The notes under the pieces were generated by a model. It ran no database searches. It was given only the letters and a program-made list of their open reading frames with translations, and was not told the origin of the DNA. From IMG/VR virus record IMGVR_UViG_3300037225_000325, positions 1-54,618 of that record: a DNA stretch of 54,618 nt; one strand, given 5' to 3'. Both the position numbers and the translations under genes were made by a program. Positions within the stretch are counted from its first letter, which is position 1. Every line of letters starts with the position of its first letter. The stretch is from a virus. Taxonomy: Duplodnaviria > Caudoviricetes. Positions 3,483 to 40,779 of the stretch are shown one piece after another.

Positions 3483-4965
3483 CGTAGCCCCCGATAATTA
3501 CCCGTTTGCATGGATCGCTTATCATTATCCGTGCTATCATCCCGTAAGGGAAAAGCCCTACCCTTCTCCACACAGCCCTCTTGGCGTACTCTCCGATGGC
3601 CCCGAGGGATGTCCCGTAATCTCCGGACCACGTATGGCCGCCATCTGCCGAGAAGGAAAATACTATATTCCCCCCGACGCCCATTTCAGCATCTACTATG
3701 AGCCGGTTGATCCTGATGCTGTTAAGTTCTCCCTTCTTGTCTGCAAGGATTTGAGCGGTTCTGAAGGCAACGATAGGAGTGCCGCCATCATCCTGGTACA
3801 CAGAATCGGTCATCTGATAGATGTTCCCGCTTTTCCAATCACCCACAAGGTGCATATTGTTGAAATAGGCGTAGCAATTACTAAGGTGGCGGTTCGTCTG
3901 ATATATGTAGGCTGCCCCGTAGCTCGACCGTTCATGCCACGCCATCATGGGATCGGGGATAGTGGAGTCAAAAACAAAGGTCTGGTTCATTGAAGGGGAT
4001 GTTACGACCCAGAAACTATGGCCGTCTGCTTCGTAACAATAGCTGAATGCGTCCGTCCATGGGGTCCATTTCTGCATTTGGAACGTAATGGCGGGAGGGG
4101 AGATAACCTGCACAGCATCACTTGAAATCTGTACGGCTCCTATGAAACTTGGTCCGTCGTTCACCCGCCGCGCTCCGAGCATAAAAAGCCCGCCGTTCCC
4201 CCTCGCTACAGAAGCCGGCGCAGGAGTCCCGTAGTCCATGACGGCGGCTGTCATACGGGAGAATGGGAAGCCTTGGGCGGTAGCTATCCCGGCGTTGTAC
4301 CAAATCTCCGTTGTCACTTGCTTTACAAAGAAGAGCTGCTGCTGTTCGTACCAGATTGATTGAACGGGGTCCGGGGTCGCTTCGATGGACGCTACGGCCA
4401 GCGTACTCCAGTTCAGGCCGTTGTAAAGATCGGAACAGAAGACATTCATCGAATTGGCTTGGGCTACAACAAAATACCCGTCTGCGAATTCGAGGGCAGT
4501 AACTCCTGTCGAGGGGAAGCCGCACGTTCCATAGCCTCCGCTGCCCGCGAAAAAGGCGCTACTGGTAAATGTATACGTGACGACGTTGTAGATGTAGCCA
4601 AGCACCCCATCAACTATCATGAGCTGGTTCCCGCCGACTCCGCCAACGGCCAGCCCGTTGTCCTTCATAATTACCCTGCCGATAGATGTCCCGAGCGATG
4701 CCAACGGGGCGGATACTGTGCCGGAGGTATTGACCGAGTAGAGGTTTGTCCCTGCTACCACGTAGAGAAGCCCGTTAAATACGTGCATTTTACGAACCAC
4801 ATACGCCCCAGCATTGGTCCATAGTGTCGTTCCCGGCGTCCCAACTAGGGAGAAAGGAGATTTTGACCCCTTGGCGTTCATCTCTACGAAAAAATTGACG
4901 AGGCGGGAGGCATCTATGTTTGACGAGCGGCCTATGTAGCCGGGGCCTACGAGCTCAAAGATCAT
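3475..4965 (-). CDS. Packaged-DNA stabilization / tail hub protein, P22 gp10-like
   Basis: 496 aa, beta-propeller-like. C-terminal FSFSADGGHTW...GAIGEY...WRRVG...ISDP signature; synteny fits. Confidence 0.8.
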   Translation of the reverse strand: MIFELVGPGYIGRSSNIDASRLVNFFVEMNAKGSKSPFSLVGTPGTTLWTNAGAYVVRKMHVFNGLLYVVAGTNLYSVNTSGTVSAPLASLGTSIGRVIMKDNGLAVGGVGGNQLMIVDGVLGYIYNVVTYTFTSSAFFAGSGGYGTCGFPSTGVTALEFADGYFVVAQANSMNVFCSDLYNGLNWSTLAVASIEATPDPVQSIWYEQQQLFFVKQVTTEIWYNAGIATAQGFPFSRMTAAVMDYGTPAPASVARGNGGLFMLGARRVNDGPSFIGAVQISSDAVQVISPPAITFQMQKWTPWTDAFSYCYEADGHSFWVVTSPSMNQTFVFDSTIPDPMMAWHERSSYGAAYIYQTNRHLSNCYAYFNNMHLVGDWKSGNIYQMTDSVYQDDGGTPIVAFRTAQILADKKGELNSIRINRLIVDAEMGVGGNIVFSFSADGGHTWSGDYGTSLGAIGEYAKRAVWRRVGLFPYGMIARIMISDPCKRVIIGGYVD

Positions 4966-29759: not shown

Positions 29760-29931
29760 TACCTTAACGATGGAAACAGGAGACACCAAGATGAAATGGC
29801 ATTTGCCCTGGACGACAAATACTTTAAACCACTGGCCCGGGCAACTTAAATCATGCTGCCCATCTCTCAAATCCACACTCTCTCACATCGGCGTATTGCT
29901 CTGTGGGTGGGCGGCAAAAAAGGAGGAAAGA

Positions 29932-30810
29932 ATGGCTACTTTTACGATTATGCACCTATTCAATGATTCAGTCCTGTTTGAGATTGAGGCCGATAGTTTC
30001 ATAAAAGCCGTTGAAGCGGCGCTTAAAGCACGTGCCGACCTTCAGGGTGCCAACCTTCGGGGTGCCAACCTTCGGGGTGCCAACCTTCGGGGTGCCGTCC
30101 TTCGGGATGCCAACCTTCAGGGTGCCGACCTTCAGGGTGCCGTCCTTTGGGGTGCCAACCTTCAGGATGCCAACCTTCGGGGTGCCGACCTTCGGGGTGC
30201 CAACCTTCGGGGTGCCGACCTTCGGGGTGCCGTCCTTCGGGATGCCAACCTTCAGGATGCCAACCTTCAGGGTGCCGACCTTCGGGGTGCCAACCTTTGG
30301 GGTGCCAACCTTCGGGGTGCCAACCTTCGGGGTGCCGACCTTCAGGGTGCCGACCTTCAGGGTGCCAACCTTTGGGGTGCCAACCTTCGGGATGCCAACC
30401 TTCAGGATGCCAACCTTCAGGGGGCCGACCTTCGGGGTGCCGACCTTCAGGGTGCCAACCTTCGGGGTGCCAACCTTCGGGGTGCCAACCTTCGGGGTGC
30501 CAACCTTCGGGGTGCCGACCTTCGGGATTTTCTCAGCACTAATTCCGTCCAAACAGTACTTACTATCACCGATTGGGGGCAACTGCCCGATGATCTTACC
30601 CTCGAACTAATGCGCCACGATGCCGAATCGTGCGGGGAAGAGGCAATGACTGTATGGGCCAAGGGCGGGGCCTGCCCGTTTAATAACAGTGTCCGTGATT
30701 ATAAATTCACCGAGAGCCACGCCCTATGGCAACCAGGTCCGCCCACGATGAGAGGCCGCAAGTTGCTTGAAGCGCTTTGGGTCAGCAAAGGAGGCCGCAT
30801 ATGGGATTGA
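29932..30810 (+). CDS. Pentapeptide-repeat protein
   Basis: 33 A(D/N/V)L(R/Q/W)(G/D) repeats; RBS AAGGAGG before MATFTI. Confidence 0.9.
   Translation: MATFTIMHLFNDSVLFEIEADSFIKAVEAALKARADLQGANLRGANLRGANLRGAVLRDANLQGADLQGAVLWGANLQDANLRGADLRGANLRGADLRGAVLRDANLQDANLQGADLRGANLWGANLRGANLRGADLQGADLQGANLWGANLRDANLQDANLQGADLRGADLQGANLRGANLRGANLRGANLRGADLRDFLSTNSVQTVLTITDWGQLPDDLTLELMRHDAESCGEEAMTVWAKGGACPFNNSVRDYKFTESHALWQPGPPTMRGRKLLEALWVSKGGRIWD
30031..30525 (+). repeat. 15-bp tandem repeat x33 (ggtgccaaccttcgg variants)
   Basis: Directly visible in the sequence. Confidence 0.95.
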
Positions 30811-31367: not shown

Positions 31368-31433
31368 GACACGCTTTCAAATCGGCTCGCGGCTCAGGTG
31401 GTGGGGGGTGGCACAAAAAAGGAGGAGAGAAAT

Positions 31434-32357
31434 ATGTGTGAGTTCGTCTCGTTTATCGAATACAAAGATGATGTCTGGTTCCTCACAAACGATTGTCTCA
31501 GAACCAAGGAAGGGAAGGCTCTTCGGAAGTATCTCGGAGATCAATTTACCAACGACATTAGGGGGCATGGAGCTATCCGGCGCTACTACGGCATACCAAA
31601 GGATAAGGGGGTGAATGAGGAAATCACCCGTTTTGATACGCCCAATACGTTTCCCCCCAAGATCGTTGAGGCCATCAAAGATGGAGCGTTTTCCATGATT
31701 TCCCCGCTTCCTATGGGTATTTTGAGGCAGCCCCTCTATGCTGACTACTATGCCAAACGGCAGCTCCTCGATGCTGACTATAATGCCAAACGGCAGCTCC
31801 TCGATGCTGACCGCTATGCCAAACGGCAGCTCCTCTATGCTGACCGCTATGCCAAACGGCAGCCCCTCGATGCTGACTATAATGCCAAACGGCAGCCCCT
31901 CGATGCTGACTATAATGCCAAACGGCAGCTCCTCGATGCTGACTATGATGCCAAACGGCAGCCCCTCGATGCTGACTATGATGCCAAACGGCAGCTCATC
32001 GATGCTGACTACTATGCCAAACGGCAGCCCCTCTATGCTGACTACTATGCCAAACGGCAGCCCCTCGATGCTGACTATGATGCCAAACGGCAGCCCCTCG
32101 ATGCTGACCGCTATGCCAAACGGCAGCTCCTCGATGCTGACTATAATGCCAAACGGCAGCCCCTCGATGCTGACTATAATGCCAAACGGCAGCTCCTCGA
32201 TGCTGACTACTATGCCAAACGGCAGCTCCTCGATGCTGACCGCTATGCCAAACGGCAGCTCCTCGATGCTGACTACTATGCCAAGCTGAAGCCCCTCGAT
32301 GTGGCAACATGGAAATTGATAGCCGATAGGGAGAATAGGATTGAGGTATGGCAATGA
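31434..32357 (+). CDS. 11-residue (hendecad) repeat protein
   Basis: 17 copies of RQ(P/L)(L/I)(D/Y)AD(Y/R)(Y/N/D)AK after an MCEFVS...HGAI N-terminal domain. Confidence 0.85.
   Translation: MCEFVSFIEYKDDVWFLTNDCLRTKEGKALRKYLGDQFTNDIRGHGAIRRYYGIPKDKGVNEEITRFDTPNTFPPKIVEAIKDGAFSMISPLPMGILRQPLYADYYAKRQLLDADYNAKRQLLDADRYAKRQLLYADRYAKRQPLDADYNAKRQPLDADYNAKRQLLDADYDAKRQPLDADYDAKRQLIDADYYAKRQPLYADYYAKRQPLDADYDAKRQPLDADRYAKRQLLDADYNAKRQPLDADYNAKRQLLDADYYAKRQLLDADRYAKRQLLDADYYAKLKPLDVATWKLIADRENRIEVWQ
31725..32285 (+). repeat. 33-bp tandem repeat x17
   Basis: Variants of cggcagctcctcgatgctgactataatgccaaa. Confidence 0.95.
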
Positions 32358-32533
32358 ACAATGACTGGACTTCCGAACTCGCCCGGATGAAGACGGAGAA
32401 TGAGAAGTACAGGACGATGCTTGAGCGGATAGCGAGGTGGGGCAGCCCCATCTATGGACCACGGGACTATACCTCCCAGGATGCCCAGGACATGAGGAGA
32501 TGGGCCATAAAAGCCATGGAGGTTAAACCATGA
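32354..32533 (+). CDS. Hypothetical protein
   Basis: ATGA-coupled small ORF. Confidence 0.5.
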   Translation: MNNDWTSELARMKTENEKYRTMLERIARWGSPIYGPRDYTSQDAQDMRRWAIKAMEVKP

Positions 32534-36026: not shown

Positions 36027-36479
36027 ATGTCACAGTATTATGTAGGAGTAAAGATCGTGTTTGCCTGGTCGGAAGTGAAGGATGGTAAAGAAGGGTATGC
36101 CGTCAAGTATCCCGATGGCTATACCTCGTGGTCTCCAAAGGACGTTTTTGAATCGGCTTATCTTCCCATGGGTGATGGTAACGATAACTCCGTCACTCAG
36201 GCCATGGTGGACCTGTTCACGGGCAAGGAGTACGTTGCGAGGGATGAGGATGACGGGAAGACAACCGTAGTCCAGTGCAAACTGGCTTCTGGCTTCATGG
36301 AGTACGGGGTAAGCTCCTGTGTTGACCCAAAGAATTACGACTCCATTATTGGGTCAGAACTGGCCCTCAAGAGGATCAAGGATGTTGTCTGGAAGTGCCT
36401 CGGTTTCGTGGTCCAGTGGGGCAAATTCGGCATCAATACAAACATAGGATTGAACGCAAAAGCCCGTAACGAGGGTTAA
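36027..36479 (+). CDS. Phage gp49/gp66-family protein (Acb4-like nucleotide-sponge candidate) with an N-terminal GY.SWSPK domain
   Basis: YVGVKIV.A...GY.V.YPDGY.SWSPKDVFE.AY, then L.SGF...G.SSCVDP.NYD..IG...A...I...VW...GF. Confidence 0.65.
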   Translation: MSQYYVGVKIVFAWSEVKDGKEGYAVKYPDGYTSWSPKDVFESAYLPMGDGNDNSVTQAMVDLFTGKEYVARDEDDGKTTVVQCKLASGFMEYGVSSCVDPKNYDSIIGSELALKRIKDVVWKCLGFVVQWGKFGINTNIGLNAKARNEG

Positions 36480-36500
36480 GACCCTCAATAATAAGGCTGT

Positions 36501-36535
36501 ACCCGGTTCGGCCCCACCGGGTTATCAAAAGGGCC
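36501..36535 (+). ncRNA. H-type pseudoknot element, copy 1
   Basis: P1 ACCCGGT/ACCGGGT; loop GGCCC pairs with downstream GGGCC across an A-rich linker. Confidence 0.55.
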
Positions 36536-36547
36536 AATGGTGAAAAG

Positions 36548-36778
36548 ATGGGTAAGGGTGATCGGTTCTCGTCCATAAGGCGAAAGCAGGCTGCGATTAA
36601 AACGGCAGAAGCTACCGGCCAGATTGCGGATAGCCTTGAGGTACGCATGGCATTGCTGGACCGCATGAAAAACGGAGAGATAACGCTTGAACAGCTTCGG
36701 GATGAACTGAAGAGAATCAAACGGGGAGCGAAGGCGGCGGGAATGACTACCCGAGAACAAGCATACCGGGAGGGGTGA
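36548..36778 (+). CDS. Hypothetical basic protein
   Basis: 76-aa ORF co-oriented with the early arm. Confidence 0.6.
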   Translation: MGKGDRFSSIRRKQAAIKTAEATGQIADSLEVRMALLDRMKNGEITLEQLRDELKRIKRGAKAAGMTTREQAYREG

Positions 36779-36829
36779 AAAGATGGCTGACATTTTATCC
36801 GATTTACGAGATGCCGACGAGAGGGGAAG

Positions 36830-39013
36830 ATGAACTATAAGGATTTTCTCACCTCTAAGCGTCTCATTGTAGGATCATCGGGCATATCGGTTTATGATTC
36901 CGACATCCATCAGATGCTATTTCCCTTTCAGCGTGACCTTGTTAGATGGGCCTGCAAGAAAGGCAAGTCTGCCATTTTTGCAGATACCGGCCTTGGCAAG
37001 ACCTTCATGCAACTTGAATGGGCACGGCTCATGGCCAAGAAGGCCTTCATAGTCGCCCCTCTCTCCGTGGCAAGGCAGACAGTCAAGGAAGCGCAAAAGA
37101 TAGGCATCACGGTCAATTACTGCCGTTCCCAGGCGCAAACCACGGACGGCCTGAATATCACCAACTATGAAATGATAGAAGCGTTTGACCCCTCAGCCTT
37201 CGATGCCGTGGTCCTTGATGAATCATCCATTTTGAAATCAATAGCAGGGAAGATAAAAGCCAAAATGATAGAAATGTTCGCGGAGACCCCTTATCGTCTA
37301 TGCTGTACGGCTACCCCGGCCCCGAATGACATAGCTGAGATTGCCAACCATGCGGAGTTTTTGGGTATTATGTCGCGGGTAGATATGCTTGCAACCTTCT
37401 TTGTCCATGACGATGAAGGGTGGCGGCTTAAAGGCCATGCTGAAGAACCGTTCTACCGATGGATGGCATCGTGGGGCATGTCGATCAGAAAACCGTCAGA
37501 CCTCGGATACGATGACGATGGGTACATTTTACCGCCTCTTACGATTGAGCCGGTGTTTGTCGATACGACTGTGGCCCCGGATGGTCAGTTATTCTTTACT
37601 GGCTTGAAGGGCATAACTGACAGGTCTGCGGTACGGAAGGCGACCGTGCATGACCGGATGACTTTGGCCGCGTCTCTCGTCAACGGTGACGGGGAACAAT
37701 GGATTATATGGTGCGGATTGAACGATGAGGCCGATGGAATAGCGCGGCTTCTGTCGGATTCAGTCAACATTAAGGGGTCCATGTCGATTGAGGCAAAGAT
37801 AGCAGGGATTGAAGGGTTTCAAGATGGAATGATAAGGACGCTCATTTCAAAACCAAAAATAGCCGGGCATGGCCTGAATATGCAAATGTGCCATAACATG
37901 GTATTTCTCGGGCTGTCTGATTCCTACGAGGCCTATTATCAGTGCATCAGACGCTGTTATCGATTCGGACAGACCAAGCCCGTAAGGGTCTTTATCGTCC
38001 TGTCTGAAATGGAGCGGGATATTTTCAGGAATGTTCAAAACAAGGAAAGGGAGGCCCGGAAGATGGGAGACCGATTGATCGAACACGTTAAACAGTACGA
38101 GAAGGCGGAGATTGAAGAACTGGGCATGGAGTTTATCTACGAGACGGAGACCGTTAAGCACGATGAATACACGATGATGCTCGGTGATTCCGTGGAGAGG
38201 ATGAAGGAAATACGGAATAACTCCATCGGATTATCGGTGTTTTCGCCGCCGTTCATGTCGCTGTACACCTATTCCCCCACTGAGCACGACGTAGGAAATA
38301 GTCGGGGAGAAGAAGAGTTTTTCGGTCACTTCGGGTTTATCATGGACGAGTTGAAGCGCGTCACCAAGCCGGGACGGTTGTGTTGCGTCCATGTTGCCCA
38401 AGTCCCTGCCATGCTTGTCCGTGACGGGTATATCGGGATGAAAGATTTCAGAGGCAAAACCATCATGGCTTACGAGGACCACGGATGGATTTATCAGGGC
38501 GAGTGTTGCATCGACAAAGACCCCCAAGCCCAGGCCATCAGGACACATAGCAAGGGTTTGTTGTTCGCTCAGTTGAAGCGGGATGCCTCATGGCTACGTC
38601 CCGCCCTTGCCGATTACATTCTGGTATTCAGGGCACCAGGAGACAACGAAAGCGCTATCCTTCCAGACCTTACAAATGATGAATGGATCGAGTTCGCAAG
38701 GCCTATTTGGTATGGAATCCGAGAGACAGACACCTTGAACTTCACTGAGGCCCGTACCGACAAAGATGAGCGGCATATATGCCCCTTACAGCTTGGCACG
38801 ATAGAGCGGTGTATCCGGCTTTGGAGTAATGCAGGCGATACCGTCCTGTCTCCTTTCGCCGGGATAGGGTCAGAGGGGTATCAGGCTTTGAAACTTGGCA
38901 GGAGGTTTGTAGGTATCGAATTGAAGAAGGCGTACTACCAGACAGCCCTGAAAAACCTTGAATTGGCCCTGAAAGAACGGAATGCCGGGACACTCTTCGA
39001 GGCCACTCTATGA
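36830..39013 (+). CDS. SNF2-like helicase fused to an N4/N6 DNA methyltransferase
   Basis: DTGLGKT, LDES, TAT and RCYRFGQ helicase motifs; SPPF catalytic and PFAGIGS SAM-binding motifs. Confidence 0.9.
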   Translation: MNYKDFLTSKRLIVGSSGISVYDSDIHQMLFPFQRDLVRWACKKGKSAIFADTGLGKTFMQLEWARLMAKKAFIVAPLSVARQTVKEAQKIGITVNYCRSQAQTTDGLNITNYEMIEAFDPSAFDAVVLDESSILKSIAGKIKAKMIEMFAETPYRLCCTATPAPNDIAEIANHAEFLGIMSRVDMLATFFVHDDEGWRLKGHAEEPFYRWMASWGMSIRKPSDLGYDDDGYILPPLTIEPVFVDTTVAPDGQLFFTGLKGITDRSAVRKATVHDRMTLAASLVNGDGEQWIIWCGLNDEADGIARLLSDSVNIKGSMSIEAKIAGIEGFQDGMIRTLISKPKIAGHGLNMQMCHNMVFLGLSDSYEAYYQCIRRCYRFGQTKPVRVFIVLSEMERDIFRNVQNKEREARKMGDRLIEHVKQYEKAEIEELGMEFIYETETVKHDEYTMMLGDSVERMKEIRNNSIGLSVFSPPFMSLYTYSPTEHDVGNSRGEEEFFGHFGFIMDELKRVTKPGRLCCVHVAQVPAMLVRDGYIGMKDFRGKTIMAYEDHGWIYQGECCIDKDPQAQAIRTHSKGLLFAQLKRDASWLRPALADYILVFRAPGDNESAILPDLTNDEWIEFARPIWYGIRETDTLNFTEARTDKDERHICPLQLGTIERCIRLWSNAGDTVLSPFAGIGSEGYQALKLGRRFVGIELKKAYYQTALKNLELALKERNAGTLFEATL

Positions 39014-39222
39014 CCTGGCCCTGGTATCACTTCGTTCTGTCCTCCATGGCCGTCCTTGGTGTCTACCTCAACAATCACAAGCGCCGTGGATGCTTCTACC
39101 TTTGGATGGTCACAAACGCCGCATGGGGGGTTATCAATTACAGTCACGGTCTGCCAGTGGAGGCCATGCAGAACACGGTATTCCTTGGACTGGCCTTTCA
39201 TGGATGGTGGAAATGGAAATAG
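39010..39222 (+). CDS. Small membrane protein (PnuC-like fragment)
   Basis: Three hydrophobic segments; CFYLWMVTN...GWWKW. Confidence 0.55.
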   Translation: MTWPWYHFVLSSMAVLGVYLNNHKRRGCFYLWMVTNAAWGVINYSHGLPVEAMQNTVFLGLAFHGWWKWK

Positions 39223-39265
39223 GCTCTCAACGGGCTCTGTGGAAAAGGCCCTTTTTCAATGGTAT

Positions 39266-39301
39266 CCCGGTTCGGCGCCTACCGGGTTAAAAACAAGGCG
39301 C
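39266..39301 (+). ncRNA. H-type pseudoknot element, copy 2
   Basis: P1 CCCGGT/ACCGGG; loop GCGCCT pairs with downstream AGGCGC. Confidence 0.55.
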
Positions 39302-39314
39302 GTGGGGTGAAACC

Positions 39315-39452
39315 ATGGATTGGATAAAAGTTTCTGACAAGATGCCTGCACCGGGCATGTTTGCTGACCTTCCGTGGTTCGAGGTCTACGAAGGAGATAA
39401 GCTTGTTACTCGCCTCAATGCTGCCCACGTGACAGAGGTAACCTATGCCTAA
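39315..39452 (+). CDS. Hypothetical protein (45 aa)
   Basis: MDWIKVSDKMP..., a common phage N-terminal motif. Confidence 0.5.
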   Translation: MDWIKVSDKMPAPGMFADLPWFEVYEGDKLVTRLNAAHVTEVTYA

Positions 39453-39687
39453 ACTCTACCAACCAGCTAACGGAGATGAGGGTGACTACTTCCAGGGCGA
39501 CTGGTGTTGTCGTTGCGAGAAGGACCGGGCCGCATGGCAGGATGACGACTTTGAGAATGGGTGTAAAATCCTTGCGCGGACCTATTACACCAACACCAAC
39601 GATGAGGATTTTCCGCAGGAGTGGCGCTACTGTCTCGACACGCCGGTATGTACGGCATTTGAGGAAGCAACCCATGCCAACAGTTAA
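39445..39687 (+). CDS. Cys-rich hypothetical protein
   Basis: YQPANGDEG..F...WC..C..D...C.IL...P.EW......CTAF, a recurrent phage motif. Confidence 0.6.
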   Translation: MPKLYQPANGDEGDYFQGDWCCRCEKDRAAWQDDDFENGCKILARTYYTNTNDEDFPQEWRYCLDTPVCTAFEEATHANS

Positions 39688-39721: not shown

Positions 39722-40000
39722 ATGATTTGGCAATTACACTGGCAATACAAGGATGGGCATACAGAGTTTAAGAGCCAGCATGAGTTTGCGGAAGGCGACG
39801 ACATGCCCAAGGAAGTCACATTGTGGATAGATGCCGCAAGAATATCCTTTCCTCTCCCTGAAGGCGTTCAGTGGCTAATGGTCAGCGAAGAATCGGAATA
39901 CTTCACGAGAGGCTGTCCCTACCCCATAAAAGGCGATGACGGAACAGCCCAGGACTGCATTGACAAGGGGCATTGTGCGTGTGATGAGGGGAAGAAATGA
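39722..40000 (+). CDS. Hypothetical protein, paralogue A
   Basis: MIWQLHWQYKDG...CPYPIKGDDGTAQDCIDKGHCAC. Confidence 0.6.
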   Translation: MIWQLHWQYKDGHTEFKSQHEFAEGDDMPKEVTLWIDAARISFPLPEGVQWLMVSEESEYFTRGCPYPIKGDDGTAQDCIDKGHCACDEGKK

Positions 40001-40482: not shown

Positions 40483-40779
40483 ATGATCTGGCAATTACAC
40501 TGGCAATTCAAGGATGGACGCACAAAGTTTAAAACCCAGAAGTGGATGTCTGTAGCTACCCCTGATGTAGTTCGTCCTTGGATAGAATACACTCAGGCTC
40601 GGTTCCCGTTGCCTCCTGACGCACAATGGCTATTGCTCAACCAGGATGACCCCAGATTTGCGGGAGTAGATGAGGATACCGACGATGGCCCCTGCCCCTA
40701 TCCCATCAAAGGCGATGACGGCACGGCTACGGACTGCATTGACAAGGGGCATTGTGCGTGTGAGGAGAGGAAGAAGTGA
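40483..40779 (+). CDS. Hypothetical protein, paralogue B
   Basis: MIWQLHWQFKDG...CPYPIKGDDGTATDCIDKGHCAC. Confidence 0.6.
   Translation: MIWQLHWQFKDGRTKFKTQKWMSVATPDVVRPWIEYTQARFPLPPDAQWLLLNQDDPRFAGVDEDTDDGPCPYPIKGDDGTATDCIDKGHCACEERKK

Follow-up and report, generated by a model that had tools for sequence, protein, structure and literature searches.

The window analysed here, 54,618 bases of DNA that make up the whole of IMG/VR virus record IMGVR_UViG_3300037225_000325, belongs to a tailed phage, as judged from its P22-like portal and coat genes, and carries on its + strand two short RNA elements, copy 1 (36502-36535) and copy 2 (39266-39301), each about 35 nucleotides (nt) in length. The evidence supports both as H-type pseudoknots, and there is little doubt that the family to which they belong, which also occurs in transfer-messenger RNA (tmRNA) genes, tRNA arrays and intergenic regions of other phages, is a real one. 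The best explanation as a whole, in which we place about as much belief as doubt, is that the knot is a ligand-independent structure that terminates or bounds an RNA.

The two copies have in common a first helix (P1) of five base pairs (bp), UUCG directly after P1, a junction A and an A-rich third loop (L3). The letters of the second helix (P2) differ between them and its pairing is kept in both; evaluated alone, P2 has energies of -8.8 and -9.8 kcal/mol. Both elements are followed by GGTGAAA (36539-36545 and 39306-39312), the Shine-Dalgarno-like GGTGA of which begins 3-4 nt beyond P2 and is spaced identically from the ATG in the two cases, and the distance from the end of P2 to this ATG is 12 nt in copy 1 and 13 nt in copy 2. 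Each copy is preceded by a hairpin and then by an AU-rich linker. An earlier note on this DNA had described the elements in these positions, with a conserved P1 and a P2 that differs yet stays paired, had seen GGTGAAA after both of them and an ATG (36548, 39315) 12-13 nt past each knot, and had remarked that the two copies bracket a helicase-methyltransferase block; rereading of the sequence confirmed all three statements, the block being the open reading frame (ORF) at 36830-39013.

The pattern CCGGTTCG-N4-10-ACCGG occurs twice in the window, where 100 shuffles lead one to expect 0.01 occurrences. Among 9158 five-bp hairpins with loops of 8-11 nt in the sequences compared, 416 (4.5%) have a 5-bp Watson-Crick match to the loop downstream by chance, and it is therefore unlikely that two related hairpins would each keep such a match, with different letters, fortuitously. 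The energies of the nested folds are ordinary (z = +1.09 and +0.38), which says little because the program cannot score pseudoknots. No third copy was found in the window with either of two covariance models of the element (R2, filters off: next match 10 bits; R1: nothing else at E up to 1).

The step that brought in relatives was to free the three outer pairs of P1 in the pattern scanned against IMG/VR, which gave at least 114 loci and was followed by two narrower scans. Family members scoring 36-55 bits with R1 are present in at least 36 IMG/VR contigs besides the window, and the remaining pattern matches mostly lack a P2 and stay below 25 bits. Five other viral records that were searched whole contain one copy each. 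The earlier note had proposed an Infernal search of Rfam and a covariance-model search of phage sequences; the former gave no match at gathering thresholds, and the relatives came from the pattern scans and were scored with R1.

For the analysis of covariation, 20 distinct sequences from outside the window were aligned with MAFFT, with no fitting to a structure, and the 11 pairs of both helices were counted. The letters pair in 97.2% of the cells, as against 72.3% in shuffles, and the covariation score is 0.633, as against 0.205; none of 500 shuffles was as high in either measure, although the family members were chosen partly by their pairing and, as a caveat of the covariation tool, related sequences can beat every shuffle without any structure. 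When the structure was moved by one to three columns, the score did not exceed 0.142. Seven of the 11 pairs show a double-sided change, three in P1 and four in P2, and with the window copies added (23 distinct rows) 95.6% of the cells still pair. A real H-type pseudoknot is the best reading because the slid controls are low and double changes are found in both helices, so that the covariation of P2 which the earlier note had seen between the two copies is borne out on relatives from other phages.

Model R3, from which the window copies had been left out, finds copy 1 with 31.5 bits (E 1.9e-8), and the next match in the window after the two copies has 8.5 bits. In the family alignment copy 1 falls into register. 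Copy 2, which reaches 30.7 bits with R1 and 37.7 bits with R2, has its P2 one column out of register owing to a first loop (L1) of 4 nt, and three of its six P2 cells are scored as unpaired in the fixed alignment.

These results bear on a reading at the level of DNA, in which the copies are protein-binding inverted repeats, or the recombination boundaries of the helicase-methylase module, and the P2 match arises by chance from GGCC and GCGC. The copies flank a 2.7-kb module, their P1 is a DNA inverted repeat with CCSGG sites, and a strain variant of copy 1, which is described below, shows that P2 can be lost; moreover, both P2 cores are self-complementary, and a direct repeat would therefore also look like pairing. 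We consider such a repeat highly improbable, however, since the spacer between the arms is 10 nt in one copy and 11 nt in the other, a difference easier to reconcile with an RNA loop than with a dimer operator, and since in both copies P2 matches at one position more as a complement than as a direct repeat. Furthermore, double changes preserve both helices in the relatives from unrelated phages, and these relatives lie on the transcribed strand of tmRNA and tRNA genes.

Several other searches for the pseudoknot were negative. A scan of IMG/VR with the exact P1 gave 19 loci, none with a P2 or an A-rich tail, and the four metagenome-contig and two genome-contig loci from the exact-P1 scan are chance matches, apart from one that is possibly a borderline member. 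In the latter (L105, 2424-2464, on a metagenome contig) P1 has 4 bp, two of the P2 pairs are G-U, and L3 is A-rich and 9 nt long. Among 80 loci with relatives of the helicase-methylase gene, the closest of which were read, the element is not at the matching place, nor is it there in the 13 of 80 loci with relatives of the gp49-like gene whose downstream DNA was read. R1 gave no match in loci L001-L085. Neither the 76- nor the 80-amino-acid (aa) ORF has relatives in IMG/VR, and Enterobacter phage Tyrion and a Klebsiella phage have homologues of the 76-aa gene that are not accompanied by the element. In cultured phages, blastn with each 55-57-nt element gave chance matches only, and 4% of the 3.1-kb stretch was matched. 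Narrow pseudoknot descriptors found no excess over reversed-sequence controls (14 vs 33; 44 vs 55). No description of the motif was found in open-licence full text on preQ1-I phage variants, two-piece tmRNA, cyanophage tRNA-like knots or GGUUCGG; the 10,006 candidate viral RNAs described for a large viral RNA screen may include it (PMC10690425).

Two other structures were seen in the course of these searches. On the minus strand of L001 and L006 (~4390-4470 of the L001 reverse complement) there is a near-consensus promoter (TTGACA, 17 nt, extended -10), and 7 nt beyond it a hairpin that shares the CCGGTTCG...ACCGG stem, with AAGGAG and an ATG coming next. No P2 is present, and this is a plain 5′-terminal hairpin in a leader position comparable to that of the knots. 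On the gut-type phage contigs L155 (1447-1483), L165 and L169 (both 2885-2921), an AU-rich potential pseudoknot lies directly before AAAGGAGG, about 25 nt past the gp49-like gene. This is the same place as that of copy 1, with no sequence likeness, and the AU-rich sequence may be due to chance or be a terminator.

Outside the window the family falls into three kinds of surroundings. In three contigs among the matches listed (L195, L300 and L229; group B) the knot follows the stop codon of the tag ORF of a permuted tmRNA gene. The knot of L195 aligns, with high posterior probability, with the last ~37 positions of the RF01849 (alpha_tmRNA) consensus, in which the same order of motifs and the complementarity of P2 are visible, and one alignment and one model take in both L195 and the window copies. 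The earlier note had called the element an unassigned cis-regulatory RNA; the idea that it has no known kin is not supported, since in the consensus of alpha-type two-piece tmRNA the same motif makes up the pseudoknot region at the 3′ end. Caulobacter chain A (213 nt) is described as ending in “pk3 and ACCU tail,” the tail being modelled as copied from an ACCA end (PMC1168896), and the coding piece of two-piece tmRNA as having pseudoknots on both sides of the tag frame, with the terminal knot counted as PK2 (PMC3985003). The older alpha model spans protruding terminal regions, and the covariance model does not model pseudoknot stems (PMC11915505). No tmRNA was detected in the window by Rfam at gathering thresholds, by RF01849 run on the record or by ARAGORN; as the record has an estimated completeness of 67%, one may be present elsewhere in the phage.

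In 23 contigs among the matches listed, as well as in the cultured cyanophages S-RIM50 and S-RIM8, the knot is located in tRNA arrays (group A). It is preceded by a hairpin with a conserved GUCCAAA-type loop and followed by a conserved GCCA, after which a tRNA begins at once or after 2-4 nt, so that cleavage by RNase P would place an RNA end at or near the knot. In L216, no tRNA was called at once after GCCA by ARAGORN or Rfam. The GenBank records of S-RIM50 and S-RIM8 leave this spacer unannotated. The cyanophage element as a whole is ~115 nt in length (KU594605.1, S-RIM50, L337, 543-659; KX349286.1, S-RIM8, L338, 543-660; L260, 4698-4836) and consists of an 8-bp helix around a hairpin, a second hairpin whose GUCCAAA-type loop is like an anticodon loop reading CCA, the knot, and GCCA. 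It is not called by ARAGORN or Rfam, and looks like a pseudoknotted tRNA-like small RNA, the 3′ end of which would be set at or near GCCA by RNase P acting on the next tRNA.

The same surroundings suggest a reading in which the knot mimics the acceptor/T arm of a tRNA and recruits RNase P, RNase Z and the CCA-adding enzyme, thereby cutting the polycistronic early transcript at cistron borders, much as tRNAs punctuate mitochondrial transcripts. P1, the junction A and P2 together give 11-12 layers, which is near the 12 bp of an acceptor/T arm, and the conserved GCCA followed by a tRNA in the cyanophage group fits well. So do the ACCU tail of Caulobacter chain A, modelled from an ACCA end (PMC1168896), and the account of permuted tmRNA precursors as probably processed by RNase P and tRNase Z (PMC3985003). 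We nevertheless hold this mimicry to be decidedly unlikely, as the window copies have AAUGG and GUGGG instead of an NCCA-like tail, no such tail is conserved in the T4-like group, and there is no T-loop at the far end of the stack.

This T4-like group (C) comprises 10 contigs among the matches listed, from marine myophages with PstS, gp33-like and gp59-like genes. Here the knot is intergenic and lies ~31-36 nt before the ATG of a 92-aa ORF. In eight aligned loci an invariant TAAATAAGTAT abuts the 5′ side of the knot, and the coding sequence upstream has diverged; NATAAATA, given as the late promoter motif of cyanomyoviruses (PMC2984593), is present in four of the eight, and the other four differ from it at one position. 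The leader that follows the knot is CA-rich and unstructured. If the spacing between promoter and start is that of T4, as we assume, the +1 position would fall on the first base of P1. The window's own two copies constitute the remaining group (D), and the downstream genes, which specify a 76-aa PHROG 38343 protein, a 45-aa ORF and the 92-aa ORF, share nothing across the family.

The knot might alternatively be a docking site that binds ribosomal protein S1 or the 30S platform as an enhancer of translation, or a phage RNA-binding protein as an operator. Pseudoknots, and the pseudoknot region of tmRNA, are bound by S1, and a pseudoknot in the leader is the site at which gp32 nucleates; the 3-4 nt that separate each window copy from GGTGA, the equal distance from there to the ATG in the two copies, and the CA-rich unstructured leader of the T4-like group would agree with such a role. 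It is, however, an unlikely one for the family, in which no common candidate binding protein was found and the distance to the start codon ranges from 12 to 36 nt. For the copies within tRNA arrays and for those that form the 3′ end of tmRNA there is no start codon to serve, and the homologues of the 76-aa gene in Tyrion and the Klebsiella phage do without the element.

In all three contexts outside the window the knot appears to sit at an RNA end, namely the 3′ end of the tmRNA coding pieces and of the GCCA-tailed RNAs and the predicted 5′ end of the T4-like late message. These contexts, the strong P2 and the absence of the cytosine on which preQ1-I specificity depends lead us to favour a terminal or boundary structure over a metabolite sensor. 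On this explanation, each element would be a constitutively folded H-type pseudoknot that needs no ligand, with P1 and P2 stacked through one invariant A and the A-rich L3 running along P1, and would form a compact nuclease-resistant structure at the end of an RNA. The window knots would then be situated at, or a few nt from, the 5′ ends of mRNA segments extending from 36502 to ~39256 and from 39266 onward, and these ends might arise where transcription starts from a weak -10-like site or where the AU-rich linker immediately before the knot is cleaved. So placed, the knot could shield the downstream message from 5′-end-dependent decay and prevent upstream structure from involving the adjacent Shine-Dalgarno sequence. 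The role in terminal or boundary stability, taken by itself, is at best evenly poised and perhaps slightly less probable than that. Among the functions that the earlier note had put forward, a nuclease block is the option that best fits the locations of the family. What the data show are the covariation of the fold, the membership of the copies in the family and the variety of its surroundings; the location at an RNA end in this phage and the protection from decay are what we infer.

A number of observations weigh against this explanation or against parts of the evidence for it. GGTTCGG, ACC, TTA and AA are invariant by construction, the search pattern having been taken from the window, and the family represents only about four lineages, so that the covariation rests on few independent events. 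The R3 score of copy 2 (17.1 bits, E 1e-3, local) is not discriminating because L105, which was picked by the pattern and scores best in 524 kb of other loci, reaches 16.7 bits; as far as can be judged from sequence, copy 2 counts as a member on four grounds, namely that its P1 is identical to that of copy 1, that it has the junction A, that its L3 is A-rich and 9 nt long, and that its own 6-bp P2 is perfect. In the window 12-13 nt separate the knot from the ATG, as against ~31-36 nt in the T4-like group, and a common geometry at the ribosome site is therefore not conserved. Neither of the -10-like hexamers in front of the knots (36487-36492 and 39255-39260) has a -35, and a scan for sigma-70 promoters and terminators listed nothing at either knot site; the hexamers are so spaced that a transcription start would land at the knot, and the promoter reading of AATAAT (36487-36492) would be a weak one. 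Among the 20 runs listed with the window DNA there is no RNA run.

The comparison of strains, in which contigs of four peat runs were set against 36300-39500, belongs with these points. A contig of 1277 nt from run X10 covers 36300-36652 (353 nt) with only five differences, all of them in the 3′ half of copy 1, all to C and all within 15 nt (T36522C, T36525C, G36531C, G36532C and A36536C). The same five differences are found near the end of a contig from run X12, which is from a different study. Copy 2 is unchanged in X10 and X12, and long X10 contigs show no further difference over the 3.2 kb. Five clustered changes in otherwise identical DNA indicate a single patch event; when a local template for the variant was sought, only chance 9-mers were found in the window. 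Two P2 pairs are lost through the substitutions, the first U of L3, which the rest of the family never varies, is altered, and no change in the loop strand compensates; it follows that copy 1 is dispensable, lost or rewired in that strain. The variant allele is able to form a new hairpin of 5 bp, inside which lie the Shine-Dalgarno sequence and the start codon. The variant weakens the case that copy 1 is essential, and has no bearing on the fold of the reference allele.

The record is classed as “linear” in IMG/VR, and the window DNA is present in peat metagenome runs. The knots occupy two of the few intergenic gaps of a + strand gene block (Table 1), with a SNF2-type helicase fused to an N6/N4 DNA methylase encoded between them. 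Both start codons downstream of the knots look real. Residues 7-76 of the 76-aa product align with positions 7-76 of the profile of PHROG 38343, to which no function is assigned. The 45-aa product starts with MDWIKVSDKMP, presumably a DUF551-like N-terminus, which no Pfam or PHROG match backs. The start of the PnuC-like 70-aa ORF overlaps the stop codon of the helicase-methylase gene (ATGA), and its product may be either a truncated relic or a small membrane protein. The hairpin at 39232-39251 with its T5 looks like a weak terminator, and is absent from the terminator scan because its stem is too short.

Table 1. Coordinates of the two pseudoknots and of the features around them in the window
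Feature	Position	Strand	Remarks
Hairpin GAGGGT/ACCCTC	36471..36486	+	Stop codon of ORF 36027-36479 in loop
AU-rich linker after hairpin 36471-36486	36487-36500	+	Carries -10-like AATAAT at 36487-36492
Copy 1, P1 CCCGG/CCGGG	36502-36506 with 36517-36521	+	Plus A36501-U36522
Copy 1, loops	L1 36507-36509; L2 36515-36516; L3 36522-36530	+	L1 UUC; L2 CA; L3 9 nt
Copy 1, P2 GGCCC/GGGCC	36510-36514 with 36531-36535	+	
Shine-Dalgarno-like GGTGA (36539-43), 4-nt spacer, ATG 36548	36539..36550	+	Heads 76-aa ORF 36548-36778
SNF2-type helicase/N6_N4-methylase fusion	36830..39013	+	Pfam, PHROGs
70-aa ORF resembling C-terminal third of PnuC NMN transporter	39010..39222	+	Pfam PF04973, E 1.6e-7
Terminator-like hairpin (GGGC/GCCC; 39232-39251) and T5	39232..39256	+	3′ of PnuC-like ORF
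-10-like TTCAAT	39255-39260	+	Overlaps tail of 39232..39256 hairpin
Copy 2, P1, same as copy 1	39266-39270 with 39282-39286	+	
Copy 2, loops	L1 39271-39274; L2 39281; L3 39287-39295	+	L1 UUCG; L2 A; L3 9 nt
Copy 2, P2 GCGCCT/AGGCGC	39275-39280 with 39296-39301	+	6 bp
Shine-Dalgarno-like GGTGA (39306-10), 4-nt spacer, ATG 39315	39306..39317	+	Heads 45-aa ORF 39315-39452

Elsewhere in the window there are two tandem arrays. One, with at least 31 copies of a 15-nt unit (29942-30616), lies within a pentapeptide-repeat ORF (29770-30810), and the other, with 16 copies of a 33-nt unit (31627-32400), lies within the overlapping ORFs 31377-32462 (-) and 31398-32357 (+). Just 3′ of copy 2 are two small paralogous ORFs (39722-40000 and 40483-40779; 92 and 98 aa), the ends of which are 86-88% identical in DNA and 761-779 nt apart.

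The fold is of a known type, and the structure nearest to it has been described as a part of alpha-type tmRNA. The novelty appears to lie in the way phages employ it, as a module standing by itself in mRNA leaders and tRNA arrays. As the family is missing from Rfam, such elements go unannotated, for instance in the 117-nt spacer between tRNA-Thr and tRNA-Ala of S-RIM50. A wider proposal, which we regard as doubtful, is that of a portable phage RNA knot with the preQ1-I fold and an invariant adenine of its own in the ligand slot, which closes tmRNA coding pieces, ends a GCCA-tailed tRNA-like RNA and heads late or early messages. It would serve as a general end-cap against exonucleases and 5′-end-dependent decay, and could be a ligand-free relative of preQ1-I aptamers, either their ancestor or a product of their decay. 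If the favoured reading of a terminal or boundary knot holds, one fold of 35 nt would serve mRNA leaders, tmRNA and tRNA-like RNAs as a reusable end structure, and not as a gene-specific regulator; it would offer a testable model of the means by which phages delimit segments of long transcripts and determine how long these last, and would give one of the smallest riboswitch folds a twin that needs no ligand, with consequences for the origin of aptamers.

With regard to known RNA families, Rfam 15 gave no match at gathering thresholds over the whole window, in agreement with the earlier note, which had called the RNA unassigned, and at E up to 10 nothing relevant was found in 36400-39400, such as guanidine-III or another compact pseudoknot riboswitch. 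With the laxest filters, a 66-nt slice containing copy 1 matched no Rfam family at E up to 10, and a slice of the same length containing copy 2 matched only PreQ1 (RF00522), with 12.5 bits and E 1.2 against a cut-off of 39. The elements are like preQ1-I riboswitches in being compact H-type pseudoknots of ~34 nt with a 5-bp P1 closed by G-C, an L1 of UUC and an A-rich L3 able to line the minor groove of P1, and in having a ribosome-binding site nearby. The specificity cytosine of preQ1-I is described as strictly conserved in all three types and as lying directly 5′ of the 3′ strand of P1, in a UC or AC motif (PMC11625349). The window copies, unlike preQ1-I, are without it. Its column, for which the earlier note had already reported an A in the two copies, holds A in the cmscan alignment of copy 2 and in all 23 distinct rows of the family, and in the family alignment the C after this junction A pairs with the last G of P1. 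They differ further in the length of the second loop (1-2 nt, as against ~5), in a P2 of 5-6 strong pairs, as against 3-4, with the Shine-Dalgarno sequence outside it, and in having no link to queuosine genes, none of which (Que/Tgt) was found among the 30 window ORFs scanned with Pfam (a crude call gives ~85 ORFs). An expression platform of the preQ1-I kind, in which P2 contains or adjoins the Shine-Dalgarno sequence, or there is a terminator, and queuosine genes lie downstream, is not seen here. On sequence grounds the elements thus resemble the preQ1-I fold and are not members of the RF00522 family.

A variant of the preQ1-I riboswitch is very unlikely for the same reasons. In such a variant the A would retune the pocket to another ligand, the binding of which would stabilize P2 and alter translation 12-13 nt downstream. 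The shared topology, the location of the elements beside a ribosome-binding site, PreQ1 being the only Rfam family to match either slice, and the PnuC-like ORF just upstream of copy 2 can all be cited in its favour. Copy 2, however, falls far under the cut-off and copy 1 has no match, the strictly conserved cytosine is replaced throughout the family, and the 5-6 pairs of P2, being mostly G-C, should form without a ligand. In addition, the Shine-Dalgarno sequence is left outside P2, no queuosine gene was found among the scanned ORFs, and the downstream genes are unrelated, with many copies in tmRNA or tRNA arrays and not in mRNA leaders. We conclude that the elements are probably not riboswitches; the riboswitch variant suggested in the earlier note is not upheld, and the ligand-independent terminal or boundary knot remains the favoured explanation.

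The pseudoknot in the leader of T4 gene 32 and the hairpin in the ompA leader are 5′-terminal structures, the latter a stabilizer of bacterial mRNA. They are like the window knots in being stable structures at or near the 5′ end of a message, in front of an unstructured leader and a start codon, although in the window phage this terminal position is a matter of inference. The genes downstream of the window knots are not gene 32, there are no repeats of the UUAAA type, and there is no sequence similarity. The T4 gene 32 operator, which we take to be defined by its place in the leader of a gene 32 (ssDNA-binding protein) homologue, ahead of an unstructured A/U-rich tract, is accordingly not represented, the sequences downstream being those of the PHROG 38343 gene and the 45-aa ORF.

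The closest known relative of the elements appears to be the 3′-terminal pseudoknot of alpha-type two-piece tmRNA. The window copies differ from it in that their L3 starts with UUA, where the alpha consensus has CAACAGAA, in that they have no ACU or ACCU tail, and in that they stand free in the intergenic gaps of an mRNA beside start codons. As judged on the Rfam consensus line of RF01849, the two have in common a P1 that ends in GG, a UUCGG that leads into P2, the junction A, a CC that opens the 3′ strand of P1, and an A-rich L3 followed by the 3′ strand of P2.

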